From the IMG/VR virus record IMGVR_UViG_2870495154_000003: DNA of 60,319 bases, one strand, 5' to 3'. The notes beneath the pieces were generated by a model, which saw only the letters and a list, made by a program, of their open reading frames with translations, ran no database searches and was not told the origin of the DNA. The position numbers and the translations under genes are program-made. The DNA is from a virus (Duplodnaviria > Heunggongvirae > Uroviricota > Caudoviricetes). Positions 1 to 53,810 of this stretch are shown here, piece after piece. How positions within the stretch are numbered: position 1 is the stretch's first letter; the number at the start of each line of letters is the position of its first letter.

Positions 1-90
1 GGTCATGGCCTCCATAGTGATGGCGGGTCCTCCTTGTGGGGTGCCCTGCCACGGGGCGGGAGCATCGCGGAAAAAGGCTAGTTTTTGCAT
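1..90 (-). CDS. Hypothetical protein, 5' fragment (start codon at 88..90; remainder lies before the window)
   Basis: Identical to the 5' end of ORF 10203..10577 (MQKLAFFRDAPAPW...). Confidence 0.4.
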   Translation of the reverse strand, partial: MQKLAFFRDAPAPWQGTPQGGPAITMEAMT

Positions 91-251
91 TTTTATTCGT
101 CATCACCACCAATGCAATATATTGATATGACTTGATGTTTTATTTTTCGGTGTCGATTTCGATTGTTTTTTGTTCATCACTGACGCATAACGCCCACCAG
201 CGCAACGCTGAAAGCCAGTCAGTAAACTGGCTTAGGTCATTGTGCACTACG

Positions 252-794
252 TTACTTGTCTTTATCCGACTGAAACTTATCAGGCACATTTCCGGTAGTT
301 TCCATCAGATAATCGGACAGCATTCGCGGGATGTTTTCATCAAGTTTTGTGCATGCGTTACAGGCTCTGACAACTTCTTTTTTCAGGCCATCCAGCATGG
401 CGGGGGTCATCTGTGGGAAGCTCCTTTGCATAGTAAGCGGCAGGCTGCCCATGATTGAAGAAATCTGACTCGCCAGTTTTGAAAGCGCATATATACAAAA
501 TTCCGTACTAATCACATCGCCGCGTTCGCGCTCGTTTTTAAGCTCCTGCGCCTCCGCCTGCGCTGTCAGCAATCTGATCCTGACTCGCAAAAGCTCATCA
601 TTATCAATCTCGCCTTTGTCGTCTGTAATCTGGTTAATTGCATTGCTAACCCGATTGTCTATTACGCTGGCAACATCATAAAACGCCTCGCGGCCTTTAC
701 GTTCAACGGGAGTCACTCCCCACTTGTCGAACGCTGTCGCACTTACACGGCAGCTTTGCGCCATGTTTTTTTTGTTCATCAGGTGCGATTTCAT
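252..794 (-). CDS. Terminase small subunit, lambda Nu1-like
   Basis: ORF 252..806 trimmed to the ATG at 792..794, which has a GGGGA SD 5 nt upstream (an ATG at 777..779 is an alternative). C-terminal half matches recalled lambda Nu1 (RLTxAQAxAQELKN..., FC, LPLxxQRxFP); the N-terminal DNA-binding region is diverged. Sits immediately downstream of a lambda-type cos. Confidence 0.8.
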   Translation of the reverse strand: MKSHLMNKKNMAQSCRVSATAFDKWGVTPVERKGREAFYDVASVIDNRVSNAINQITDDKGEIDNDELLRVRIRLLTAQAEAQELKNERERGDVISTEFCIYALSKLASQISSIMGSLPLTMQRSFPQMTPAMLDGLKKEVVRACNACTKLDENIPRMLSDYLMETTGNVPDKFQSDKDK

Positions 795-879
795 CAATAT
801 CCCCACTTAAGTAATGTTTCAGGTTGGTGTATTGGCTTTATCTTTTCCTTTTTATTCATAGAGATAGAGCGAACAACAA

Positions 880-995
880 AACCACCACCAGCACCCGAAA
901 AAGGCTCATAAATAGCGAAAACCCGCGAGGTCGCCGCCCCGTAACCTACCGGATCGCCGGAAAGGACCCGCCAGCCAGAACGGGCCCTAATTTCA
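880..995 (-). other. cos site region; cosN 12-nt cohesive-end sequence at 928..939
   Basis: Minus strand reads CGGGTCCTTTCCGGCGATCCGGTAGGTTACG-GGGCGGCGACCT-CGCGGGTTTTCGCTATTTATGA, matching recalled lambda cos (right end, cohesive end, left end) with a few substitutions in the cosQ-proximal part; sequence diverges beyond ~35 bp on the TerS side. Recurs in every copy (cosN at 11415, 21898, 32385, 42872, 53359). Confidence 0.8.
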
Positions 996-1379
996 TCAAC
1001 CAATCAACTTATAGCGACCATCCCGTGCATTGCGACGTACACGCTCAATCTTGAGGCATAGCGCCGCATCTGGCTTTTTTGGGACAGGTACGCGGCAATA
1101 TTCAGAAGCTCGAGGAATATTGTTTATCCAGTCGATCACTTCACTTAAATACCAGGCCTTACGCCCTTTCGTAACCTGTACGCGTTCGGGGAACTCTCCG
1201 CGAGCCTCAAGGTTTAGCAATGTGCGACGGCTAAGGGTAGTAAGTTCCATCACCTGATTCATATCAACAAGGCGTTCACTTAAACGCATTTTGTCAGCAA
1301 TAGCCTTTAATTCCTCTACTGCTGGATCCGGATACATCATTTCGGCAATTGGCTTAAGGTCATTGTAATGATTCTGCAT
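996..1379 (-). CDS. AlpA/Xis-like helix-turn-helix DNA-binding protein (127 aa)
   Basis: ORF with GGGGGA SD 5 nt upstream; central motif LTTLSRRTLLNLEARGEFPERVQVTKGRKAWYLSEVIDWI resembles AlpA-family HTH. Lies between the decoration gene and cos/TerS. Confidence 0.6.
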   Translation of the reverse strand: MQNHYNDLKPIAEMMYPDPAVEELKAIADKMRLSERLVDMNQVMELTTLSRRTLLNLEARGEFPERVQVTKGRKAWYLSEVIDWINNIPRASEYCRVPVPKKPDAALCLKIERVRRNARDGRYKLIG

Positions 1380-1390
1380 TGTATCCCCCT

Positions 1391-1732
1391 TTACACACGA
1401 GCCAGCGGCTGAACAGAAATACCTGAGCCAACAAACGCGGCAACCTTTGCCGACAGTTCTTTTACAGACTCAGGCCAGTTCAGAGCATCAACATTTAAAA
1501 CACCTGTCTTATAAACCTGTGCCTGTGTTTTTTTCGCTGTGTCGATTTGTACAGCGGAAACATAAACCGCTTTACCTACGCTCGAACCATCCCATACCAC
1601 CAGTGCACCTGTTGCATCTTCCTGCATCAGTGGCGTAAATGCAGGAATTACCCCTTTATTAGCTGAAAATATCCCCAGCGTAGTCACCAGTGCTTCAGTG
1701 CCAGCCATGAGTTCAGTGTAATGAGTAGCCAT
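1391..1732 (-). CDS. Head decoration protein, lambda gpD-like (113 aa)
   Basis: Collinear similarity to recalled lambda gpD (PAFTPLM / PAMTPLM, LVVWDG / LVAWDG, YKTG / YKSG, NWPE / LWPE, AFVGSGIS / AFAGTAIS). Starts 10 nt after the capsid gene stop. Confidence 0.75.
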   Translation of the reverse strand: MATHYTELMAGTEALVTTLGIFSANKGVIPAFTPLMQEDATGALVVWDGSSVGKAVYVSAVQIDTAKKTQAQVYKTGVLNVDALNWPESVKELSAKVAAFVGSGISVQPLARV

Positions 1733-1741
1733 TGCTCCCCC

Positions 1742-2788
1742 TTAGCCAATGCGAACGGTAACAAAACGATTGATGCGGGCCGGTATTGGCTGTGGTGCTG
1801 AATGTGTCTGCACATATTCAATAGCCGGATCACCAGGCACAATATAGTTTTTCGGTGCAAGTTCGGCTTTAGTCAGCCCCATTCGGATTAGCTCCGGATC
1901 CTGAATACCGCCATAGGCGACAATCCCCTGAAGAGCCGTATTGCCAAGCACCATCAAATCAGGATCAAGGAAATGTTTTTCTGTTCCGTCCTCGTCGGTA
2001 TAACGCCCGCTGTAAACAACAATCGCAACATCGCCCATATACCCTTTAAAACTCACCGAATCACCAAGGTCTTTAAGGGCCGTTTCCAGTTCGGAATTAG
2101 AACCACGACGGGTATCCAAAGCCTCTTTTATCGCTCTGAATGAACGGTATTTCTTCCATACATTACCACCCATAATGATGATATTAGTGACGCCCTCACT
2201 AAATTCTGCGTAGCTCTCAATATCATCATTTGGATCAAAAGTTTCTTTATCCTTACCTGACCACTCAGTACCGCCAGACTGAGTGATGATATTTTGTGGT
2301 TTTATATTCCAGTCCAGCTCATAACGTTCAATACCATCGCCCTCAATGATATTTTTCCCCGTTGTGATTGCCTGAACAGCAAGCCATTCAATACGTGCAC
2401 GAATAGCTTTAGCCTGATTTACAATCGCCTGTTTAACTTTAATATTACGCGCCCCAAAAGCATTGTATTGCTCAGGTGACACACCAGCAGGGCGCACAGC
2501 TAACTTATTTGGATCAATGCTGCTTTTCGGCTTCATATAACCTGGACGAATTGTTTTTGATTCGTATCCCTCATCTCGTGAAACTTTACTGCCCACCATA
2601 GGAGAGCAAAACGCCGCGATCGGGATATTTGGATCGTCGATCGTATCAAGAATAATGTCTCTCGATTCAAACATTACCGAGCGAGTGAAAAACAAACTGG
2701 TAAACAACGCATTTAATTTTTTTTGCACATCTTCAGCATTAGCCACCTGCACAAGCTGTGTAGGCGAATATAAATCAACCATACTCAT
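1742..2788 (-). CDS. Major capsid protein, lambda gpE-like (348 aa)
   Basis: ORF 1742..2869 trimmed to the ATG at 2786..2788 (MSMVDLY..., AAAGAGG SD adjacent; lambda E begins MSM). Motifs NIITQSGGTEWSGKDKETFDPNDDIESYA, DTRRGSNSELETALKDLG, GDVAIVVYSG, MVLGNT, QSAP match recalled lambda gpE. Confidence 0.85.
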   Translation of the reverse strand: MSMVDLYSPTQLVQVANAEDVQKKLNALFTSLFFTRSVMFESRDIILDTIDDPNIPIAAFCSPMVGSKVSRDEGYESKTIRPGYMKPKSSIDPNKLAVRPAGVSPEQYNAFGARNIKVKQAIVNQAKAIRARIEWLAVQAITTGKNIIEGDGIERYELDWNIKPQNIITQSGGTEWSGKDKETFDPNDDIESYAEFSEGVTNIIIMGGNVWKKYRSFRAIKEALDTRRGSNSELETALKDLGDSVSFKGYMGDVAIVVYSGRYTDEDGTEKHFLDPDLMVLGNTALQGIVAYGGIQDPELIRMGLTKAELAPKNYIVPGDPAIEYVQTHSAPQPIPARINRFVTVRIG

Positions 2789-2953
2789 CCTCTTTACATT
2801 CATTACAAATAATTGTGAATATATTCTATTACCGATGTCTGCTATGCGAATACATGCAACCAAGTGCAATGTTGTATAAAATATGCCGTAACAACTTCAG
2901 TGCTGATAATTCGTGTTAATGTATTTACTTCCTTTGGTCGGGATTTATGTAGC

Positions 2954-2995
2954 ATGCCGGAAAATCTATTTTTTTCCGGCATCTTTTTGTTTGCA
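2954..2995 (+). terminator. Intrinsic-terminator-like hairpin (11-bp stem ATGCCGGAAAA / TTTTCCGGCAT, 7-nt loop) followed by CTTTTTGTTTG
   Basis: Read directly from the sequence. The T-tract follows the stem only on the plus strand; on the minus (gene) strand the hairpin sits 17 nt after the ssb stop with no U-tract. Confidence 0.5.
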
Positions 2996-2999
2996 GAAT

Positions 3000-3422
3000 T
3001 TAAAACGGTATATTATCGCCGTACGGATCATCATTCCCCGACTGTTGTTTTGCCCTGTTCAGTGCGTCAGTGGCCTGCCCCTGCTGGCCTTTTTTGCCGC
3101 CCGGTCGCGCCGTTCGCGCACTGATTACACTGTCTGCGATAACCTGCCAGCCCTGCCGCGTTTCGCCGTTCTGGCCTGTCCACTGGCTTACCTGCATGTT
3201 ACCCGCCACGCTCACCAATTCGCCTTTGTGGTGTTTTGCCAGTGCGTCGGCCTGTCTGCCAAACGCCAGGACGGATAACCACATCGTCGCCGTTCCGTCA
3301 TCTGCCTGGCTGCACGGCAGGGGAACCGCCATACTCGCCATCGCCATTTGTGTCCCTTTGCTGGTGGTCTTTAACTGCGGGTCAGCCACCAGCCGCCCGT
3401 AAGCCGCTATCTGTGCTGTCAT
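3000..3422 (-). CDS. ssb: Single-stranded DNA-binding protein (140 aa)
   Basis: OB-fold-like core (WLSVLAFGRQADALAKHHKGELVSVAGNMQVSQWTGQNGETRQGWQVIADSV), Gly/Gln-rich linker and acidic C-terminal tip DDPYGDNIPF, comparable to E. coli SSB ...DFDDDIPF. ATGA overlap with the upstream ORF. Confidence 0.8.
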   Translation of the reverse strand: MTAQIAAYGRLVADPQLKTTSKGTQMAMASMAVPLPCSQADDGTATMWLSVLAFGRQADALAKHHKGELVSVAGNMQVSQWTGQNGETRQGWQVIADSVISARTARPGGKKGQQGQATDALNRAKQQSGNDDPYGDNIPF

Positions 3423-3664
3423 GCTGTCTGCTCTCCGGTTTTAACGTTGATGGTTGTCACCTGTTCCGCTTCGGCAATCTCCCGTTCTGTCAGCGTGGCA
3501 AAGTTTGCAGCTGCCGTTGTCATGAATGAGCTAATCAGTTCGGGATGTGCTTTCGCATATCCTTCCCCGGCGTTGCGGTCGATGATTTTTATCGACACCC
3601 TTAACCAGTGTTCCGTCAAATCAAGGGCGTGCGATTGTGATTTTTTTGTGTGCTTCGCTGTCAT
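3419..3664 (-). CDS. Hypothetical protein (81 aa), translationally coupled to ssb
   Basis: ORF in track; its stop overlaps the ssb start (ATGA). No recognisable motif. Confidence 0.45.
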   Translation of the reverse strand: MTAKHTKKSQSHALDLTEHWLRVSIKIIDRNAGEGYAKAHPELISSFMTTAAANFATLTEREIAEAEQVTTINVKTGEQTA

Positions 3665-3712
3665 AGGCTTTATCTCACAGCAGTAAATTAAAATTTTTGC
3701 GTTTTAACCCTT

Positions 3713-3937
3713 CACCTGTTCACCTTTTGATATTTTATCTTTTAATTCATAATGTTAAGGGGTGAACAGTTTCACAAAAACTATTCACCAACTGTTCACC
3801 ACTGTTCACCCTTGAAGCTCAATAAACAATCAAAAAGGTGAACAGTGAATAGTTTGGTGAACAGTTCATAAATAACTGTTCACCCTATAACATACTGATA
3901 CAAAAGATATTTATGACAGGGTGAACAGTGGTGAACA
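3713..3937. repeat. Iteron cluster / putative replication origin: about 9 copies of GGTGAACAG in both orientations in AT-rich DNA
   Basis: GGTGAACAG or CTGTTCACC at roughly 3716, 3762, 3793, 3803, 3838, 3859, 3877, 3919 and 3929, directly 3' of the primase-helicase gene. Recurs in every copy. Confidence 0.7.
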
Positions 3938-3951
3938 GTTATTCCATAAGT

Positions 3952-5769
3952 TTAATTTTTGCTATCGTCATTAGTGACCGATACACATGATGGCATCCAG
4001 TCTTCTGATTCCTCCGTCAGTGTCACGTTTGAACGCAAACCGTGCTTCGTTTTCCGTTTCATATACTCCCTGCCATATTCCGCCATTGCCCCCGGCATAT
4101 CTTTACCGAAGCGCGTCAGTGTTACAGGTTTACCAAACCCATGTGCCTTCATATAAGCCAGATAGGCATGATAGAGATACCTGCGCGGGCTGAATGGCAC
4201 AATTTCAGCATTACCCACTAACAGGCCATCACACATTACCGACGCCATGAGATAGCCGCAGAAGTCCACCAGCGAATCACCTTCACGCTTTATCGCGAGT
4301 GCTTCTTCTGATTTCTGCTGCTCATATAAAAGGCGTCTGGCTTCGTCCTGGTCAGCAAACCGTGTAAGCAGATGACGAATCACTACCGCCAGCTCACCTT
4401 CTATTTTTTCCGCCAGCATTGAATCGCGTTCGTTCTCCGGTACAACTTCCGAAAAATTGAATATCACCCGACGGCGCGAGATCCCCCCACTGCGGTCACT
4501 GAATGACATAGCGTTATTGTTAACCGCCAGCACTACTGCCGGGATACGCGTTGAATATGGGGCTTTATGTTTTGGGTCGATTGCCACCTTGTCACCGCCT
4601 GTAATAGCCTTAATTCCCGCCCCATCACCAGCGTAGCGGGTCATATCCGGCATGATAATCAGCGAAAAGCCAACCACTAACGCGCGTTCCCTTGCATCTT
4701 CCAGCGCCTTCATGCTCGCTGATACTGTATTAGCCTTACCCGCCAGCATGGTGCAAATCTCCGCCATCACGCTTTTACCACTTCCCCCTGGACCTGTTAC
4801 CTCAATGAATAACTGCCAGTCGTACCGGTTCGCCAGCACCATGAATAATGCAGCCAGTACGCGATCCGCCTTGCGGTCATTCTCAGCCACCGAACGGCGT
4901 AACCACTTCCAGAAATTCGGCGCATGTGTTGCCAGCGTTTCCCCCTCTGCTGGTGGGCTGAAAGGTAATTCACTGGCAATTAACAACCAGTCGTTTTTGT
5001 TATGCTCCCGAAAATTACCTGTTCTGGTATCAAATACCCCGTTACTGAATCCAATCAGGTTACGGGCTGTATTCCCCATTACAGGCAAACTTAACTTCAT
5101 GGTATCGACCGCCGATTTAATGGCGTTCTGCGAATAGCTGATCTCCGCATCAATGAAAATCTGTGCCATAGCTCGCTGTAATTCTTTATCCTGTACTGGC
5201 TCCCATACAACGCCGTTGTAATGGTGAACAGTGTCAGAGTCAGCATGAATCGCCAGTTCACCGCCATAATGTGCCAGGAGAACTTCGCCGCGTTGACTTG
5301 CTCCCATCTGGTTAAGCGCCAGTGATGAAGCGTTATCGTCTTTTACCCGCTCTTTTTTCTTTACAGGCAGTTCAACTACCTTTTTCTTTTCCGCCAGCTC
5401 TCCCCGCTCACGTTCCAGATATTCGCGCCAGTTCTCCCGTTTCTGGCTGTGCATTCCTTCAGGGTAATAATCAGCATCCCTGACACCTGCCGCTGCCAGT
5501 TTCTGCCCGATGGTATTAACAAGCCCCGGACGCAATAACCCCGCCTGGTAGAGACGCACGCGATAGCGTCCGTCCGGTACGATTTGCAGGTTGTCCAGTT
5601 CGGCAAGTTGTTGCTCTCCAAGCCAGACAGGTGGCACGTTATCGCCAGCCAGTCGCCCGTCCTGTTCCTGCCACTGCGTCGCATGTGCCCACGCATCACT
5701 ACCCGCAAAAATGATGACTTCCGTCATTTTGTCACGCGGCTGGTGTTTTAAATTTGGCGCTTTTTTCAT
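3952..5769 (-). CDS. Primase-helicase, P4-alpha / D5-type (605 aa)
   Basis: ORF 3952..5784 trimmed to the ATG at 5767..5769 (GGAGAGAG SD; ATGA overlap with upstream ORF). Walker A GPGGSGKS in the C-terminal NTPase region; overall layout typical of satellite/PICI primase-helicases. Confidence 0.85.
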   Translation of the reverse strand: MKKAPNLKHQPRDKMTEVIIFAGSDAWAHATQWQEQDGRLAGDNVPPVWLGEQQLAELDNLQIVPDGRYRVRLYQAGLLRPGLVNTIGQKLAAAGVRDADYYPEGMHSQKRENWREYLERERGELAEKKKVVELPVKKKERVKDDNASSLALNQMGASQRGEVLLAHYGGELAIHADSDTVHHYNGVVWEPVQDKELQRAMAQIFIDAEISYSQNAIKSAVDTMKLSLPVMGNTARNLIGFSNGVFDTRTGNFREHNKNDWLLIASELPFSPPAEGETLATHAPNFWKWLRRSVAENDRKADRVLAALFMVLANRYDWQLFIEVTGPGGSGKSVMAEICTMLAGKANTVSASMKALEDARERALVVGFSLIIMPDMTRYAGDGAGIKAITGGDKVAIDPKHKAPYSTRIPAVVLAVNNNAMSFSDRSGGISRRRVIFNFSEVVPENERDSMLAEKIEGELAVVIRHLLTRFADQDEARRLLYEQQKSEEALAIKREGDSLVDFCGYLMASVMCDGLLVGNAEIVPFSPRRYLYHAYLAYMKAHGFGKPVTLTRFGKDMPGAMAEYGREYMKRKTKHGLRSNVTLTEESEDWMPSCVSVTNDDSKN

Positions 5770-6059
5770 TTCTGCTCTCTCCACGCGGCAATCATGTTTT
5801 TCAGTTCCTGTAGTTTTTTATCCACACGTGACACATGGTTATTTCTGGAAAGCGGGATTTCCCGCCTGAATCTGCTAATAAAGATCTCCACGTTCAGCGA
5901 ACTATGAAATGAATAGCCATCACGAATAAAATAAACACGGTCAAACATCAGTTCTTTTACCGTTACTCTGTTACCGTTCTTATCCAGATAAATAGCGCCG
6001 GGGATAATTTTTGGGTGTGCATAACCGCTGGCAGTCAAGCCAGATAAATATGTTCTCAT
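5766..6059 (-). CDS. Hypothetical protein (97 aa), translationally coupled to primase
   Basis: ORF in track; stop overlaps the primase ATG; GGGGA SD upstream. Confidence 0.5.
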   Translation of the reverse strand: MRTYLSGLTASGYAHPKIIPGAIYLDKNGNRVTVKELMFDRVYFIRDGYSFHSSLNVEIFISRFRREIPLSRNNHVSRVDKKLQELKNMIAAWREQK

Positions 6060-6065
6060 GATTAT

Positions 6066-6386
6066 TTATCCCCGATTTGAATCAGTATTCGCTTTCTTTA
6101 TGGCATTTAATGCATCTGTGGCATTTTCAATGGTGCACCGTAACGAAATATCAAACTGCCCAAGCATTGCCAGTAACAAGCCAATATTCCCCATGTCAAT
6201 GCGCATAGCCTTTTCGTCATATTCCTCATTTTCTGACGCATGCCACATCAGGCTACCAATTGACGCAACAGCCATTGATATATTGTCAGTAGCCCCATCC
6301 GCAGCGGAATAAACCTTTTTAGCAATATCATGCTCACAGTTAAAATGCGGATTAATCAGGTACTGGTAATTTGACATATCAGGCAT
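6066..6386 (-). CDS. Hypothetical protein (106 aa, [15 protein letters not shown]...)
   Basis: C-terminal part of ORF 6066..6821; the upstream part of that ORF is Pro/Arg/Leu-rich and looks off-frame. ATG at 6384..6386 overlaps the stop of the upstream ORF (ATGCCTGA). Confidence 0.45.
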
Positions 6387-6918
6387 GGCACACCCCCTGG
6401 CGAATACGGGCGGCGAATACAGCAACACAACCGGACGGGCAGCGGTTACGCGCTTCACGTTCCGTCCAGGCGGTGACGTGGATGATTTGATGGTCTGACG
6501 CGCCAAAGATGATAAAGCGCCAGAGAAAGGCGGTTTGAGAATGTACAAGGGTAGGGATAGTAGCCATGTTGGCAGCCTCCTTTGACAGTGAAGAATTTCC
6601 ACCGCAGGAAACGCCAATTTCGCTGGCGGTGGACTGAACGGGGTTGGCGTAACCGGCGTCAAAGGGAACCGGCGCTTCCGAAGAAGCCCCCGCCCAGCCC
6701 ACCATAACTTTGATGTGAGCGAATGCGGACGATAAAAAAGACGCTGGCGCGTCATATATCGCCTTTGACATTTCCAGGACGCCAATCCCGGCACCAGATT
6801 TTGCTGGTGCGGATAAATCATAGCCCTGGCTTGCAGTGGCGATCAACTGGTTTTTTACACCCGCTTTATTCAGGTTGTGCGAGTCCCGCCCTTGCGGGTG
6901 TGTGGTATGATTTCTCAT
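6379..6918 (-). CDS. Hypothetical Ala/Gly/Ser-rich protein (179 aa; alternative 62-aa start at 6567 with AGGAGG SD)
   Basis: 3' part of the 429-aa ORF 6379..7668; in-frame ATG at 6916..6918 with GAGG SD, just beyond the divergent operator region. Confidence 0.3.
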
Positions 6919-7015
6919 AGCGACCTCGATACTATCGTTATCGTTGGTGGTTAGAAGCCCCGTTACTGCTCCAACAGTGCGGGGTTTCGTCGTTTCTGCA
7001 CCTTGCATCAACAAG

Positions 7016-7067
7016 GTGTTGAACACCAATGTAAACTCAGGTGTTGAACACGTCAAGTGTTGAACAC
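7016..7067. promoter_or_regulatory. Operator-like array: three copies of the 11-bp palindrome GTGTTGAACAC
   Basis: Sites at 7016..7026, 7041..7051 and 7057..7067, in the ~200-bp divergent intergenic region between minus-strand ORF start 6918 and plus-strand ORF start 7118. Recurs in every copy. Confidence 0.6.
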
Positions 7068-7117
7068 TTGTTTTTTTTCCTGCATACTGCATTTGTTTTT
7101 TGTGAGGGGTACACAAC

Positions 7118-7297
7118 ATGGCGACAAAAGCAGTAAACGCAAAATCACAAACAGTTGCGGCAAGGGTTCCGCATGAAGTTATGAACAATGTTGAGGCGGT
7201 AAAAATGCCTGGTGAAAGTACAGGGCAATTTGTAACAGCAGCATTAAAGCGAGAAGTTGAATACCGCCAGCGACGCAAGGCTAAAGAGCAAGAATAA
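7118..7297 (+). CDS. Small ribbon-helix-helix-like DNA-binding protein (59 aa), putative regulator
   Basis: Not in the ORF track (below 60 aa). ATG at 7118 with GAGGGG SD 7 nt upstream; translation [59 protein letters not shown]; directly downstream of the palindromic operators. Confidence 0.55.
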
Positions 7298-7354
7298 TCA
7301 CTATCAGCGCTGTGGTGTGAGGTACTCCGGCGCATTGCTTTACAGGTCGGCACT

Positions 7355-7564
7355 ATGAGCAAAAAATACCTATCCACTGAAGAGATTTTCGCAGAACAAC
7401 GAAGATTGCTTTTACAGAGCATTGTTGCACGCCAGAAAGAAAAGGCACACGCTAAACAAATGCCACCAAATACAGAACCAGCGCCTACAAAATTTGCGCT
7501 TGATGAGTTTCTCAATAAACAGCCCCGGGTAATGAAAGCTAACAGGAACCGCCCACCAGGCTGA
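7355..7564 (+). CDS. Hypothetical protein (69 aa)
   Basis: ORF in track, co-oriented with the RHH gene and followed by a plus-strand terminator. Confidence 0.4.
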
Positions 7565-7628
7565 TCACATTGCCCACCAGCCAGCAAATCGCTATGATGG
7601 CTGGGCTTATGTTTAGTGTATTCCCACT

Positions 7629-7660
7629 GGCGACCTCTGATCCGGGTCGCCTTTGTTTTA
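7629..7660 (+). terminator. Rho-independent terminator (GGCGACC-tctgatccg-GGTCGCC followed by TTTGTTTTATG)
   Basis: Read directly from the sequence; sits between the convergent plus-strand ORFs and alpA. Confidence 0.6.
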
Positions 7661-7678
7661 TGTGTCATATGCCCCCCT

Positions 7679-7888
7679 TTACGCTGCCTTGCCTGAATTA
7701 ATGCGATCCCGGCTTTTAACCCATTCCATAACCTCGGACAGCAGCCAACCTACAGAACGACCGCCCAGATTACGGCGTGACGGGAAATTCCCTTTTTTCT
7801 CCAGTTCATAGCGTGTAGTGCGACACACTCCAGTTAACTTACGACATTCATCCTCACGGATTACGCGATCTTCATTTATTTCACGCAT
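7679..7888 (-). CDS. alpA: AlpA-family prophage regulatory protein (69 aa)
   Basis: Motif [43 protein letters not shown] is typical of AlpA-family HTH regulators; lies downstream of int. Confidence 0.8.
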
Positions 7889-8307
7889 ACAAAAACCTAC
7901 ATAAAAAATTACGTATATAAACTTTTCTCTTAGCTGTAGATATATGAGATCGGATATTACTTAGATTCTTTTTTCACCTCTTAAATTAAAAACACAACCT
8001 TGCTAAAGGCTTTGTTCGCTAAGGTTCGTAGAAGCTCGTTAGTGTTTAAAATCGTGTCACGAGTTTTTAAGCGATGCAACAAAAAATGTCGTTATTTGGC
8101 ATTACGCTTGAATTATCTCATTAAAAACAAATAGATAAACCATCAAGTGTTGGAACAATCAAGAAACAGAGAATAAAAGTTCAGAAGAAGACATTCCAAT
8201 TTTTTGATGGTTGACATATATAAAGCGAAGATATTTGCAGATATTTTCCGATATTCTACGATTTATTCACGGCTGTAATCTCTTAAAGAAAAAACAGCCG
8301 TAATTTG

Positions 8308-9546
8308 TCAAGAATTTTGGGTGTAAATTCGCGGGGTCATAACAACGATTTTTTCATCATTGTTCTGGAGAAGCTCGAGACGGTCTACCCATAGATTAAG
8401 AGCATCACGTTTTGCATCAAGATAACGGGAGTGGTTATAGACTCGTTGCATCCCCGGCATCTGGTGGGCGGTAAGCTGCTCGACAATATGCGGATCCACG
8501 CCTAAATCGTTCAGCATGGTTGTAAATGTGTGCCGGATGTCATGCAACGACCAGGGGGCTTGATTAATGCGTCTGTGTGCCGTTCTTCCGTACTCTGCTA
8601 CGGATGATTGCCCTTTCAGTTCTCCAAGCAATAAGCCCGTGTGCCTGTTCTTCTCCACCAGCTTCATGACAAACGGCAAGATCGCTTCCGGTATTGGCCT
8701 GAATATTGCTACCTTCGTTTTGCTGTGTTCTTTCGGCACAGTCCAGAGCATTTCTTTAAAATCCCATTCCTGAACCTCGGAGCGTCTTAGCTCAGTGGTA
8801 CGGCATCCAAAGACAATCAGAAGGCGAATTAAGGCGCTGTAGTACGGCGGGAAAATTTTTTCATCCAGTGCGCGGAGTAGCTCGCCAAGCTCCTTGTTTG
8901 TTAGCACTCGCTCGCTTATTTCTGCTTTTTTTCCCACATCACCTACGACCATATCATCAAGAACGTTACTGACGGCGTAGCGACGTTTACGGCAGTACTT
9001 AAGCGCCTGCTTGCATACCTGCAACAAAAAGCCGGCTGATACCGGATTACGCTTAGCAAGCTGGTCAAAACAGGCCAGCCAGTGGCGTAGCTCGCATTTA
9101 TCCAGCGGCATAGCACCAATCTGGCTGATTATGTGCTTATTGATACGGCTTTTCAGTGATTCGTGGTCAGTGCGCTTTTCCTTCGCATACGACTCAAGCC
9201 AGTAAGTGAGCGCGTCCTTAACCGTCACAGGGGCTAACGCTTCCTGCACTGTGTGATTAAGCTCATGGCGTGGATTTTTCCCCTCCGCCAGCCAGGCGCG
9301 ACACTGTGCCGCTTTTTCCCTGGCTGCTTTCAGGCTCAGATCGGGATAGTTGCCCAGTCTCAGGCGTTCCGGTGATACCTGCCTGCCAGTTCCGGCCCTG
9401 TAAGTGAAATACCAGGTTAACAGGCCGCTGGTGGAATGTCTTACGCTAAGATTGCCACCGTCATTAAAAAAGGCGTTTTTTGTGGTTGGTGATCCGCTTA
9501 ATTTTCGTAAAAGAGTGTCGCTAAGTCTATGAATTGCGCTGCTCAT
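8308..9546 (-). CDS. int: Tyrosine recombinase / integrase (412 aa)
   Basis: C-terminal catalytic region with R...HxxR...Y signature (RTAHRR..., HDIRHTFTTML..., MQRVYNHSRYL); P4-like length and layout. Confidence 0.9.
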   Translation of the reverse strand: MSSAIHRLSDTLLRKLSGSPTTKNAFFNDGGNLSVRHSTSGLLTWYFTYRAGTGRQVSPERLRLGNYPDLSLKAAREKAAQCRAWLAEGKNPRHELNHTVQEALAPVTVKDALTYWLESYAKEKRTDHESLKSRINKHIISQIGAMPLDKCELRHWLACFDQLAKRNPVSAGFLLQVCKQALKYCRKRRYAVSNVLDDMVVGDVGKKAEISERVLTNKELGELLRALDEKIFPPYYSALIRLLIVFGCRTTELRRSEVQEWDFKEMLWTVPKEHSKTKVAIFRPIPEAILPFVMKLVEKNRHTGLLLGELKGQSSVAEYGRTAHRRINQAPWSLHDIRHTFTTMLNDLGVDPHIVEQLTAHQMPGMQRVYNHSRYLDAKRDALNLWVDRLELLQNNDEKIVVMTPRIYTQNS

Positions 9547-9573
9547 GTTTCGCGTTTCCGGTCATCAAAATTA

Positions 9574-9645
9574 ACTACACCATTGACTACACCGTGCATC
9601 GTACAAGGGCAAACCGTGACGAACAATATCGAACAACCGCGAACA
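9574..9645. promoter_or_regulatory. Direct repeats upstream of int: ACTACACC x2 (9574, 9586) and CGAACAA x3 at 10-bp phasing (9619, 9629, 9639)
   Basis: Read directly from the sequence, 30-100 bp upstream of the int start codon. Confidence 0.4.
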
Positions 9646-9987
9646 AAGATCAACACGCTTTAATCATTATCATTTTCCGGCTATCCGTCATGAAGCTGGT
9701 GGATGATCTGCGTGGTGATTTCCACCATTCAGAGCAGGGGCGGTCATCATGACCATGCCATAACAAAAACCCCATATTCGTGGTTTTTCTGTGTCGGGGC
9801 TATTCTGCTGTTGCCGTGCTGGTGGATATTCTCCGGTATGCGGCTCCCCATATCGGCATCAGGCCCACCAGCGTGAAGCGTTTTTCATTTTTCGCGGGTA
9901 TAAAAAATCGATGGGGCTGGCAGTCCTGAAGACGTCAGGGTACAGAGATTTGACCCGCCCCTCCCTGTGCATGAGCACAATAAGTAA

Positions 9988-10011
9988 CCGAAGGCGGAAT
10001 TCCGCCCTCGG
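9988..10011. other. Perfect 14-bp palindrome GGCGGAATTCCGCC within an imperfect 24-bp inverted repeat
   Basis: Read directly from the sequence, in the non-coding region between the 124-aa ORF and int. Confidence 0.5.
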
Positions 10012-10073
10012 TACTTACATATGAGAAACGATATTTCTTCCACCGATACCCTTTATTTGGGTATTGCGAGTAA

Positions 10074-10152
10074 GCCCCAAAATCTGGGTGTTACTCTTAC
10101 TACCCAAACTACGGGTAGTTTCCGTAGTTTCATGGTCGAGTTGCAAATCTGC
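10074..10152. other. Cluster of three consecutive stem-loops (9-bp stem AAACTACGG / CCGTAGTTT; 6-bp GTTGCA / TGCAAC; 7-bp AACGCAA / TTGCGTT)
   Basis: Read directly from the sequence; 50-130 nt beyond the stop of the minus-strand ORF 10203..10577. Confidence 0.45.
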
Positions 10153-10202
10153 AACTCACCCACCAGCCAACGCAATTTTGCGTTATCGGGAATATCAGCA
10201 AG

Positions 10203-10577
10203 TTACCGCCGCAGTCGTTCCGGCTTCTTCCACTGGTAAGTATTTTTCGCGCTCTCCCTCCGTTGTTGAGAACGGCGACGGTATGCCAGCAACTCAAGGA
10301 CTCTGGTTCGTATGTTGCGCATATCCACGCCGTTAAGCTCAATACCATCACGGCGCATCACCTCAGCAACAACACGCGCGTAATTTTCGGCTATCACGCT
10401 GTCCGGCTGCGTGGCCTCCTGTTCGCCAGCCTGCTGGCTGATTCCGGTAATACTGCGGATTATCCCGAGCGCTTCGGTCTCGGTCATGGTCATGGCCTCC
10501 ATAGTGATGGCGGGTCCTCCTTGTGGGGTGCCCTGCCACGGGGCGGGAGCATCGCGGAAAAAGGCTAGTTTTTGCAT
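10203..10577 (-). CDS. Hypothetical protein (124 aa; probable true start at 10485..10487 giving 94 aa)
   Basis: ORF in track, last gene downstream of TerS on the minus strand. GGAGG SD is best spaced (8 nt) for the third in-frame ATG (MTETEALGIIR...). Confidence 0.4.
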   Translation of the reverse strand: MQKLAFFRDAPAPWQGTPQGGPAITMEAMTMTETEALGIIRSITGISQQAGEQEATQPDSVIAENYARVVAEVMRRDGIELNGVDMRNIRTRVLELLAYRRRSQQRRESAKNTYQWKKPERLRR

Positions 10578-11482: not shown

Positions 11483-11866
11483 TCAACCAATCAACTTATA
11501 GCGACCATCCCGTGCATTGCGACGTACACGCTCAATCTTGAGGCATAGCGCCGCATCTGGCTTTTTTGGGACAGGTACGCGGCAATATTCAGAAGCTCGA
11601 GGAATATTGTTTATCCAGTCGATCACTTCACTTAAATACCAGGCCTTACGCCCTTTCGTAACCTGTACGCGTTCGGGGAACTCTCCGCGAGCCTCAAGGT
11701 TTAGCAATGTGCGACGGCTAAGGGTAGTAAGTTCCATCACCTGATTCATATCAACAAGGCGTTCACTTAAACGCATTTTGTCAGCAATAGCCTTTAATTC
11801 CTCTACTGCTGGATCCGGATACATCATTTCGGCAATTGGCTTAAGGTCATTGTAATGATTCTGCAT
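11483..11866 (-). CDS. AlpA/Xis-like HTH protein (copy B)
   Basis: Identical translation to 996..1379. Confidence 0.6.
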   Translation of the reverse strand: MQNHYNDLKPIAEMMYPDPAVEELKAIADKMRLSERLVDMNQVMELTTLSRRTLLNLEARGEFPERVQVTKGRKAWYLSEVIDWINNIPRASEYCRVPVPKKPDAALCLKIERVRRNARDGRYKLIG

Positions 11867-21965: not shown

Positions 21966-22349
21966 TCAACCAATCAACTTATAGCGACCATCCCGTGCAT
22001 TGCGACGTACACGCTCAATCTTGAGGCATAGCGCCGCATCTGGCTTTTTTGGGACAGGTACGCGGCAATATTCAGAAGCTCGAGGAATATTGTTTATCCA
22101 GTCGATCACTTCACTTAAATACCAGGCCTTACGCCCTTTCGTAACCTGTACGCGTTCGGGGAACTCTCCGCGAGCCTCAAGGTTTAGCAATGTGCGACGG
22201 CTAAGGGTAGTAAGTTCCATCACCTGATTCATATCAACAAGGCGTTCACTTAAACGCATTTTGTCAGCAATAGCCTTTAATTCCTCTACTGCTGGATCCG
22301 GATACATCATTTCGGCAATTGGCTTAAGGTCATTGTAATGATTCTGCAT
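21966..22349 (-). CDS. AlpA/Xis-like HTH protein (copy C)
   Basis: Identical to 996..1379. Confidence 0.6.
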   Translation of the reverse strand: MQNHYNDLKPIAEMMYPDPAVEELKAIADKMRLSERLVDMNQVMELTTLSRRTLLNLEARGEFPERVQVTKGRKAWYLSEVIDWINNIPRASEYCRVPVPKKPDAALCLKIERVRRNARDGRYKLIG

Positions 22350-32452: not shown

Positions 32453-32836
32453 TCAACCAATCAACTTATAGCGACCATCCCGTGCATTGCGACGTACACG
32501 CTCAATCTTGAGGCATAGCGCCGCATCTGGCTTTTTTGGGACAGGTACGCGGCAATATTCAGAAGCTCGAGGAATATTGTTTATCCAGTCGATCACTTCA
32601 CTTAAATACCAGGCCTTACGCCCTTTCGTAACCTGTACGCGTTCGGGGAACTCTCCGCGAGCCTCAAGGTTTAGCAATGTGCGACGGCTAAGGGTAGTAA
32701 GTTCCATCACCTGATTCATATCAACAAGGCGTTCACTTAAACGCATTTTGTCAGCAATAGCCTTTAATTCCTCTACTGCTGGATCCGGATACATCATTTC
32801 GGCAATTGGCTTAAGGTCATTGTAATGATTCTGCAT
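32453..32836 (-). CDS. AlpA/Xis-like HTH protein (copy D)
   Basis: Identical to 996..1379. Confidence 0.6.
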   Translation of the reverse strand: MQNHYNDLKPIAEMMYPDPAVEELKAIADKMRLSERLVDMNQVMELTTLSRRTLLNLEARGEFPERVQVTKGRKAWYLSEVIDWINNIPRASEYCRVPVPKKPDAALCLKIERVRRNARDGRYKLIG

Positions 32837-42939: not shown

Positions 42940-43323
42940 TCAACCAATCAACTTATAGCGACCATCCCGTGCATTGCGACGTACACGCTCAATCTTGAGG
43001 CATAGCGCCGCATCTGGCTTTTTTGGGACAGGTACGCGGCAATATTCAGAAGCTCGAGGAATATTGTTTATCCAGTCGATCACTTCACTTAAATACCAGG
43101 CCTTACGCCCTTTCGTAACCTGTACGCGTTCGGGGAACTCTCCGCGAGCCTCAAGGTTTAGCAATGTGCGACGGCTAAGGGTAGTAAGTTCCATCACCTG
43201 ATTCATATCAACAAGGCGTTCACTTAAACGCATTTTGTCAGCAATAGCCTTTAATTCCTCTACTGCTGGATCCGGATACATCATTTCGGCAATTGGCTTA
43301 AGGTCATTGTAATGATTCTGCAT
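42940..43323 (-). CDS. AlpA/Xis-like HTH protein (copy E)
   Basis: Identical to 996..1379. Confidence 0.6.
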   Translation of the reverse strand: MQNHYNDLKPIAEMMYPDPAVEELKAIADKMRLSERLVDMNQVMELTTLSRRTLLNLEARGEFPERVQVTKGRKAWYLSEVIDWINNIPRASEYCRVPVPKKPDAALCLKIERVRRNARDGRYKLIG

Positions 43324-53426: not shown

Positions 53427-53810
53427 TCAACCAATCAACTTATAGCGACCATCCCGTGCATTGCGACGTACACGCTCAATCTTGAGGCATAGCGCCGCAT
53501 CTGGCTTTTTTGGGACAGGTACGCGGCAATATTCAGAAGCTCGAGGAATATTGTTTATCCAGTCGATCACTTCACTTAAATACCAGGCCTTACGCCCTTT
53601 CGTAACCTGTACGCGTTCGGGGAACTCTCCGCGAGCCTCAAGGTTTAGCAATGTGCGACGGCTAAGGGTAGTAAGTTCCATCACCTGATTCATATCAACA
53701 AGGCGTTCACTTAAACGCATTTTGTCAGCAATAGCCTTTAATTCCTCTACTGCTGGATCCGGATACATCATTTCGGCAATTGGCTTAAGGTCATTGTAAT
53801 GATTCTGCAT
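53427..53810 (-). CDS. AlpA/Xis-like HTH protein (copy F)
   Basis: Identical to 996..1379. Confidence 0.6.
   Translation of the reverse strand: MQNHYNDLKPIAEMMYPDPAVEELKAIADKMRLSERLVDMNQVMELTTLSRRTLLNLEARGEFPERVQVTKGRKAWYLSEVIDWINNIPRASEYCRVPVPKKPDAALCLKIERVRRNARDGRYKLIG

Follow-up and report, generated by a model that had tools for sequence, protein, structure and literature searches.

AlpA-family proteins and possible late-gene control in phage satellites

[quoted passage not shown] Typical E. coli PICIs encode one AlpA, according to the study of EcCIMP1 (PMC11773190). EcCIMP1 itself carries a second AlpA gene, alpA_1, which lies away from int, is dispensable for excision and transfer, and is of unknown function (PMC11773190). 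PICIs of the EcCICFT073 type also encode the small winged-HTH proteins RppA and RppC beside a lambda-type cos (PMC6739421, PMC9026076). PrtN activates pyocin structural genes through P boxes (PMC12066065).

The gene described here, alpL, encodes a 127-aa protein of a Gram-negative PICI. AlpL is clearly a member of the AlpA-fold family, and it departs from the usual size and genomic position of that family. Canonical members (EcCICFT073, CP4-57; 8c3t) are single domains of ~60 to 75 aa encoded beside int. AlpL, in contrast, is about twice that size, with helical extensions and a WINNIP motif, and its gene is 6.9 kb away from int, at the end of the capsid operon by cos. The canonical AlpA alleles have recognition helices different from that of AlpL. 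A literature search on PICIs, AlpA, excisionases, and packaging modules found no published description of alpL.

Several described proteins share some of these features. Like alpA_1 of EcCIMP1, alpL is a second PICI gene of the AlpA family that is located away from int. Unlike alpL, alpA_1 is encoded on the other strand, and the island at whose far end it lies has no capsid or terminase genes. Like RppA and RppC, AlpL is a small, PICI-encoded winged-HTH protein adjoining a lambda-type cos. The Rpp genes lie downstream of cos in the terS position, whereas alpL lies upstream, and the terS position here holds a Nu1-like TerS. AlpL has no similarity to RppA or RppC beyond the generic winged HTH (sequence comparison with RppA gave no alignment). 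It does not match the Nu1 profile at E values up to 10, whereas the neighboring product of 252-794 does. AlpL does not covary with the type of cosB or TerS.

PrtN resembles AlpL in its small size, its AlpA-like fold, and the repeated boxes upstream of a structural cluster, the AlpL boxes being candidates. The fold matches of AlpL include viral proteins that are annotated as PrtN. The resemblance is at the level of the fold, with no match of AlpL to the PrtN Pfam family at E values up to 10. The host group and the regulatory circuit also differ. A further parallel is delta of the satellite P4. Delta is a transcription factor encoded inside the satellite operon sid-delta-psu, together with capsid-modifying and decoration genes. 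It is an Ogr-type zinc finger that binds TGT-N12-ACA. AlpL shares with delta only the layout and the logic; the two are unrelated in fold and sequence, and the activator role of AlpL is putative.

The island that carries alpL

The window, by which we mean the whole stretch of DNA that was analyzed (60,319 bp), contains 5.75 head-to-tail copies of one 10,487-bp unit. There are six differences between copies. Every one is a homopolymer-length indel, which is the signature of long-read sequencing error. One unit matches, at 100% identity, an island that is integrated between clpS and cspD in E. coli CREC-532 and further complete genomes, and matches spanning 80% or more of the unit occur in 77 genomes. 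The junction between units in the window has the attP form.

The element is a Gram-negative PICI, a phage satellite. The following are all encoded on the minus strand: int, a 69-aa AlpA, an Ash-family ORF, a DUF4222 protein, a D5-type primase, SSB, an E-like capsid protein, a D-like decoration protein, the 127-aa protein, cos, and a Nu1-like TerS (Table 1). The island contains the int-alpA-primase backbone together with a replication origin (iterons at 3736-3953) and a lambda-type cos, and its concatemer is joined at attP. Tail and lysis genes are absent from it. Its architecture is the same as that of EcCICFT073 (PMC6092414) and of the helper-embedded PICIs (PMC10111431). C4 and isrK RNAs lie inside the Ash-family ORF.

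Table 1. Positions in the window of alpL and of the features discussed with it
Feature	Position	Strand	Details
TerS, Nu1-like, 180 aa	252..794	-	35% identical to lambda Nu1 over the full length, C-terminal region included
Island-specific cosB	820..892	-	Element GCTGGTGGTGGTTTTGTTGTTCG at 870-892; inverted partner CCAATACACCAACCTG at 820-835; A/T-rich spacer between the two
cosQ and cosN	906..971	-	cosQ GGGTCCT at 963-969; cosN cohesive end GGGCGGCGACCT at 928-939
alpL, 127-aa AlpA-family paralogue	996..1379	-	ATG start
alpL, identical copies	11483-11866, 21966-22349, 32453-32836, 42940-43323, 53427-53810
Shine-Dalgarno sequence of alpL, overlapping the decoration-gene stop	1384..1393	-	AGGGGGA at 1384-1390; TAA stop; read from sequence
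Head decoration gene, lambda gpD-like	1391..1732	-	Pfam HDPD, 4.1e-15; directly upstream of alpL
Major capsid gene, lambda gpE-like	1742..2782	-	Phage_cap_E, 3.8e-41; first gene of the late operon
Promoter-like site	2823..2850	-	TTCGCA, 16-nt spacer, TAGAAT; promoter scan, consensus match only
Candidate operator	2844..2880	-	Four ~10-bp direct repeats: TTTATACAAC ATTGCACTTG GTTGCATGTA TTCGCAT
Iterons	3736-3953
Canonical AlpA, 69 aa	7679..7888	-	The first AlpA of the island; adjoins int
int	8308..9546	-
attP core	9619-9626		ACGAACAA

The AlpL protein and its relatives

The sequence-only reading had described a 127-aa AlpA-like HTH protein with an extra ~40 aa at the N terminus, and it had proposed an HMM search and a structure prediction as checks. 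Pfam Phage_AlpA (PF05930) matches AlpL residues 36 to 85 (E value, 1.8e-8; score of 34.6 bits, above the gathering cutoff of 21), which bears out the family assignment. The only other Pfam match at E values up to 10 is a weak one to HTH_17. More than 90 AlpL homologue clusters carry a precomputed PF05930 annotation. PHROG 2790 ("excisionase and transcriptional regulator") matches residues 11 to 109 (E value, 2.5e-48). NCBIfam gave no match for alpL, TerS, AlpA, or the decoration protein.

The AlphaFold model agrees with the profile match. It contains an HTH with a pLDDT of ~90 and helices on both sides, and the pLDDT of the extensions is 50 to 78, which is moderate confidence. AlpL consists of N-terminal helices (residues ~8 to 33), a winged HTH (36 to 90), and a basic C-terminal helix (105 to 119). 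The winged HTH is like that of the solved AlpA/Xis proteins, and the only sequence relative with a solved structure is the AlpA/excisionase 8c3t. The conserved N-terminal extension is present as described, at ~35 aa rather than ~40 aa. A conserved C-terminal extension of ~37 aa had gone unmentioned. The recognition helix, SRRTLLNLEARGEFP, is nearly invariant among homologues, as is the WINNIP motif that closes the winged HTH. AlpL is 32% identical to the 69-aa AlpA of the same island over the HTH.

alpL is a real gene under purifying selection. It is identical in all six copies in the concatemer. Its dN/dS is 0.02 in the HTH and 0.11 to 0.16 in both extensions. The gap between the decoration gene and alpL is 11 nt. 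The overlap of the Shine-Dalgarno sequence with the decoration-gene stop indicates an operon, with translational coupling possible.

The AlpL family contains 98 homologue clusters at 57 to 94% identity, spread over Enterobacterales (Escherichia, Enterobacter, Citrobacter, Salmonella, Klebsiella, Buttiauxella, and others). Remoter members are 47 to 50% identical. Among 5,426 complete E. coli genomes, 397 (~7%) contain alpL, and the annotation there is generic only. A scan of genome contigs for alpL loci retrieved 3 loci only, and a tblastn search against 50,697 GenBank phage records gave no match. The sole "plasmid" match lies in a 4.9-Mb chromosome that is recorded under plasmids.

Linkage of alpL to the capsid module

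We compared 174 loci, of which 94 contain alpL and 80 contain a capsid module of the EcCICFT073 type; they are mostly close E. coli relatives, and ~10 are truly diverse. alpL is the last gene of an operon that encodes the E-like capsid and D-like decoration proteins. The capsid protein of the island is 346 aa as annotated in RefSeq and shares 55% identity with its EcCICFT073 counterpart. In all 93 evaluable loci, alpL comes directly after the decoration and capsid genes. This linkage is kept at 47 to 50% AlpL identity and in unrelated island backbones. alpL belongs to the late module of one subfamily of Gram-negative PICIs, helper-prophage-embedded PICIs included. Of the unrelated backbones with alpL, one is integrated at fis and encodes a DUF927 primase, and another has an HTH_17 early regulator.

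None of the 80 EcCICFT073-type loci carries alpL. In EcCICFT073, the corresponding slot, after the decoration gene and before cos, encodes an acidic protein of 137 aa (phrog_1999) that is unrelated to AlpL; a terminator, cosQ/cosN, and rppA come next. We take this protein to be c1501 from the locus-tag numbering (c1500, decoration; c1503, rppA). A c1501-like gene is present in 75 of the 80 EcCICFT073-type modules, and it and alpL are mutually exclusive at the slot. The placement of alpL between the decoration gene and cos/TerS, away from int, had been read correctly from the sequence; it is the canonical alpA that adjoins int.

A repeat array upstream of the capsid gene

The candidate operator starts 97 bp ahead of the capsid start codon, and each unit contains one. 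In the alignment of capsid-upstream regions, the repeat array is the sole conserved patch amid unalignable DNA. Its fourth repeat unit is also the -35-like hexamer of the promoter-like site. The -10 region (GTGATAGCAT or GTAATAGAAT) also shows conservation across genera, and the placement of the array relative to the -10/-35 shifts by ~9 to 10 bp between clades.

A strict array was defined as at least three of four units matching TT[GA][CT]A[CT] at a spacing of 10±1 bp. In 85 of 91 alpL loci, it precedes the capsid start by 60 to 140 bp, and the six exceptions contain degenerate versions of the same array. Elsewhere in the alpL loci, there is one stray strict array in ~1.07 Mb. Seven of 10 diverse loci have the array between positions -85 and -110 relative to the capsid start, and it is nowhere else in them. 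The fis-type island has a homologous array with five units. The 80 EcCICFT073-type loci without alpL (0.48 Mb) contain no strict array. The background in shuffled sequence is 0.002 arrays per 10 kb. No array of the capsid type was found in the window at attP, at cos, or near or upstream of alpA.

Direct repeats at helical spacing are typical targets of head-to-tail binders with the excisionase, BldC, or AlpA fold. The array is kept despite four different int-adjacent early regulators, namely two ~50%-identical AlpA alleles, an HTH_17 protein, and a protein of no family. Across the array-bearing loci, these regulators are unrelated or 45 to 50% identical to each other. This variety speaks against binding by the canonical AlpA, because the array persists where the early regulator differs completely. 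The remaining candidate binders are the invariant AlpL and a host factor.

The array and the capsid, decoration, and alpL genes form one block of ~1.9 kb, and their co-occurrence may reflect linkage or shared ancestry. The association of the array with alpL is therefore not independent evidence of binding, given the physical linkage and the relatedness of the loci. The late promoter of the EcCICFT073-type loci, which lack alpL, contains TTGCAAC, TTGCAC, and ATGCAAT in that order, at spacings of 21 and 10 bp. These TTGCA-like elements precede a near-consensus extended -10, TGATTATAAT. Since they occur without alpL, the motif could be a site for another factor or a -35-like promoter sequence. 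Two other assignments of ATTGCAC..TTGCAT were considered and rejected by eye. As a sigma-54 promoter, it lacks the -24 GG and has a spacing of 10 rather than 11. As a marbox, its second half misfits.

Proposed role of AlpL

We propose that AlpL is a late-module transcription factor, by analogy with P4 delta or PrtN, and we put the probability of this reading at roughly 45%. The late operon would supply AlpL. Its winged HTH would bind the four ~10-bp repeats, (A/T)TT(G/A)(C/T)A(C/T), head to tail, and the bound repeats would abut and overlap the -35 region of the capsid promoter. AlpL would then control the capsid, decoration, and alpL genes, and positive autoregulation or late activation would be the simplest way. 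The helical extensions at both termini may serve for oligomerization or for contact with RNA polymerase. We infer the binding of AlpL to the array, the sign of the regulation, and the role of the extensions. The sequence-only reading had also offered late-gene activation, rather than excision, as a possible role, and circumstantial evidence (the linkage to the capsid operon, the upstream array, and the lack of an array at attP and cos) is consistent with that part of it.

AlpL may instead act on the helper or host. It would repress or retime helper genes, such as the capsid and late genes, and capsids made from the island's own E-like and D-like proteins would be favored. We consider this unlikely. 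PLE CapR, which represses a helper capsid gene, is a precedent for such a role. alpL always accompanies the island copies of the capsid and decoration genes, and its near-invariant recognition helix implies a target that is conserved across genera. Many relatives of the island sit inside the helper capsid gene E, so that capsid replacement is a recurring theme (PMC10111431). However, the island-type array is absent from lambda. It is also absent from the helper late-gene DNA that flanks the embedded islands, a weak test in which the single stray in ~1.07 Mb is all that was found. Moreover, the polymerase that transcribes lambdoid late genes is Q-antiterminated and hard to block.

The cos region and packaging

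The alpL stop codon is 27 bp upstream of cosQ. cosQ and cosN sit in a ~65-bp block that is almost identical to the lambda cos, and cosB diverges beyond it. The first element of the island cosB (Table 1) occupies the R3 position and includes a Chi sequence. The sequence-only reading had suggested a packaging role for AlpL, as a cos-binding accessory or redirection factor. AlpL would bind at or near cos, on the cosQ side or at cosB, and would help or redirect the terminase. It could be architectural like IHF or Xis, or it could act on the helper TerS in the manner of Rpp or Ppi. The short distance to cosQ, the presence of cos after alpL in nearly all loci, and extensions that could bind a partner protein are compatible with this. 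We nonetheless consider it unlikely.

At least three arrangements occur downstream of alpL: an own-type cosB with TerS, a tail-assembly gene, and a helper/lambda-like cosB that has no island TerS beside it. Only ~47 of 87 evaluable alpL loci combine the island TerS with the island-type cosB (xCTGGTGGTGGTTTTGTTGTT at R3, with its inverted partner). A helper/lambda-like cosB (CGTTTCCGTTCTTCTTC) without an island TerS is present in 32 of the 87, and a distant Nu1 is downstream in 8. In the fis-integrated island, which encodes a 47%-identical AlpL, cos is followed by the tail-assembly gene. The cosN cohesive ends at alpL loci are of at least three kinds (GGGCGGCGACCT, GGGCGGAAGGCG, and GGGCGTCAGGCG), whereas the recognition helix of AlpL is constant. 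The sequence from the stop codon to cosQ is not conserved between clades, and AlpL has no sequence similarity to RppA or Nu1.

The same packaging genes are also found without alpL. Members of the same TerS family are encoded in 33 of 56 evaluable EcCICFT073-type loci, 29 of them with the same island-type cosB. One further locus encodes a distant TerS (~40% identical), and 18 of the EcCICFT073-type loci encode RppA. EcCICFT073 with tetA inserted in c1501 remained transferable (Fillol-Salom et al., PMC6092414), which means that transfer was left intact by an insertion in the presumed slot gene.

By these comparisons, the island cosB goes with the island TerS and not with alpL, and alpL assorts with the capsid module independently of the TerS, Rpp, or cosB type. 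The cos adjacency of alpL is a property of the module layout, since an unrelated 137-aa protein fills the same slot before cos in EcCICFT073. A cosB-specificity role is rejected on the ground of this independent assortment. AlpL could conceivably bind at the constant cosQ side. The comparative data argue against alpL as a dedicated cos, TerS, or redirection accessory, and the suggested packaging role is unsupported, given that the downstream modules vary and that the same TerS and cosB occur without alpL. A late-gene regulator is likelier than a packaging factor because alpL travels with the capsid genes and not with the packaging genes.

Recombination and capsid assembly

It is very unlikely that AlpL is a second recombination directionality factor (excisionase) or otherwise takes part in site-specific recombination. 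The closest solved relatives of AlpL are the GIsul2 AlpA/Xis (8c3t), RdfS, and the Pukovnik Xis, and the PHROG 2790 annotation includes excisionase. However, a canonical AlpA is already present beside int, and alpL is distant from int in the island and adjacent to it in none of the 94 loci. The integrases use different sites (clpS/cspD intergenic, prophage gene E, and fis) and the early regulators are unrelated across loci, whereas the recognition helix of AlpL is constant. Matching repeats were not found near attP.

The least probable role is one in capsid assembly, with AlpL as a scaffold-like or DNA-condensing replacement of the 137-aa phrog_1999 protein: the mutual exclusion of alpL and the c1501-like gene at one position, the weak match of the c1501-like protein to the C-terminal part of a head-maturation-protease/scaffold family (phrog_53; E value, 1e-8), and the basic amphipathic C-terminal helix of AlpL would fit it, but AlpL did not align with the c1501 protein or with Nu3 or FI of lambda, a BLASTP comparison of c1501 with lambda Nu3 was negative, and the DNA-recognition HTH is the most constrained part of AlpL, which fits sequence-specific DNA binding.

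Implications for Gram-negative PICIs

As a putative late regulator, AlpL bears on how captured late genes are controlled. PICIs have been described with a single master regulator, AlpA, and alpL encodes a conserved second AlpA-type protein that is hard-wired to the capsid genes. Most Gram-negative PICIs carry capsid and decoration genes, and alpL and its candidate operator offer a testable entry into the control of these genes. The late module (capsid) and the packaging module (TerS/Rpp/cosB) are shuffled independently, which is useful for the engineering of PICI-based delivery vehicles.

AlpL may also be one tier of a two-tier AlpA cascade. The canonical AlpA would control excision and replication, and AlpL would be a dedicated late switch for the captured capsid and decoration genes, acting through the four-unit repeat operator in the manner of P4 delta and perhaps also on helper or host promoters. 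We regard this cascade as doubtful. If true, it would represent a new class of satellite late regulator and would offer a way to study when PICIs make capsid proteins of their own, and why.

Concatemeric form and integration sites

The window (1-60319) contains 5.75 head-to-tail copies of the excised island, with a unit of 1-10487 and junctions at attP. The copies differ at six positions, and every difference is a homopolymer-length indel. Four of the six are in copy 2, where they break the capsid and decoration reading frames, and two are in copy 4. The window looks like a long-read sequence of concatemeric satellite DNA, either replicating or packaged. Its 60-kb length is greater than the capacity of a lambda-sized head.

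Many close relatives of the island (L003-L009) are inserted within the major capsid gene E of lambdoid prophages. Split Phage_cap_E fragments flank them (e.g., L003 10726-11490; L008 1-29 and 11115-11879). These relatives belong to the helper-embedded class of PICIs described by Tommasini et al. The site of the window island is instead chromosomal, in the clpS/cspD intergenic region.

Features of the island and of EcCICFT073. Positions are in the window unless a locus is named.
Feature	Position	Strand	Description
Inverted partner of cosB element	820-835	minus	CCAATACACCAACCTG
Island-type cosB element	870-892	minus	GCTGGTGGTGGTTTTGTTGTTCG, R3 position
Strong hairpin	2954-2982		11-bp stem; T-tract on plus strand
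Iteron cluster	3736-3953		GGTGAACAG(T), direct and inverted copies
Ash-family ORF	6379-7668	minus	429 aa
C4 antisense RNA (Rfam)	6622-6709	minus	inside Ash-family ORF
isrK RNA (Rfam)	6734-6810	minus	inside Ash-family ORF
Direct repeats	~8229-8256	minus	AATATC x3, 10-bp spacing, just downstream of int
attP core	9619-9626
Direct repeats	9619-9648		CGAACAA x3, 10-bp spacing, at and beside attP core
phrog_3255 ORF	L010 5463-5669		68 aa, first ORF of EcCICFT073-type module
C_RS07020 (phrog_1999)	L010 7084-7497		EcCICFT073 protein in the alpL slot

Replication, repeats, and the Ash-family ORF

The iterons lie directly 3' of the primase gene, ahead of the small ORF that precedes SSB. The cluster is probably the island replication origin. 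Canonical AlpA or the arm domain of the integrase may bind the 10-bp-spaced repeats near int and attP. EcCICFT073 has analogous repeats, five copies of (G)AACAAC, 3' of its own int (L096 2680-2740).

The Ash-family ORF starts 11 nt past alpA and is preceded by a good Shine-Dalgarno sequence. The RNAs within it scored 82 bits (C4 antisense RNA) and 75 bits (isrK), and the arrangement resembles that of P4 immunity. RefSeq annotates only fragments here: "ash family protein, incomplete," an Icd-like protein, and small opposite-strand genes.

Late and packaging modules

The hairpin sits between SSB and the predicted capsid promoter. Because of the strand of its T-tract, this predicted terminator would stop transcription antisense to the island genes, not upstream read-through into the late operon.

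The cosB element contains the Chi sequence GCTGGTGG in the orientation of the genes. Its inverted partner lies ~50 bp further on, across an A/T-rich spacer. The pair accompanies the island TerS, even in islands without alpL, the AlpA-type gene before cos.

In EcCICFT073, C_RS07020 weakly matches the C-terminal part of phrog_53 (head maturation protease/scaffold proteins; E = 1e-8). BLASTP of this protein against lambda Nu3 gave no match. The phrog_3255 ORF is conserved and opens the EcCICFT073-type module in 80 of 80 cases.

Two late modules were found across loci L002-L176. One has the order capsid-decoration-alpL, and the alternative has the order small ORF-capsid-decoration-c1501-like gene. 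Both are freely combined with packaging modules of at least three types: the island TerS with its own cosB, the packaging-redirecting protein RppA, or a helper-like cosB alone. This free pairing points to shuffling of modules at the cos boundary in these loci.
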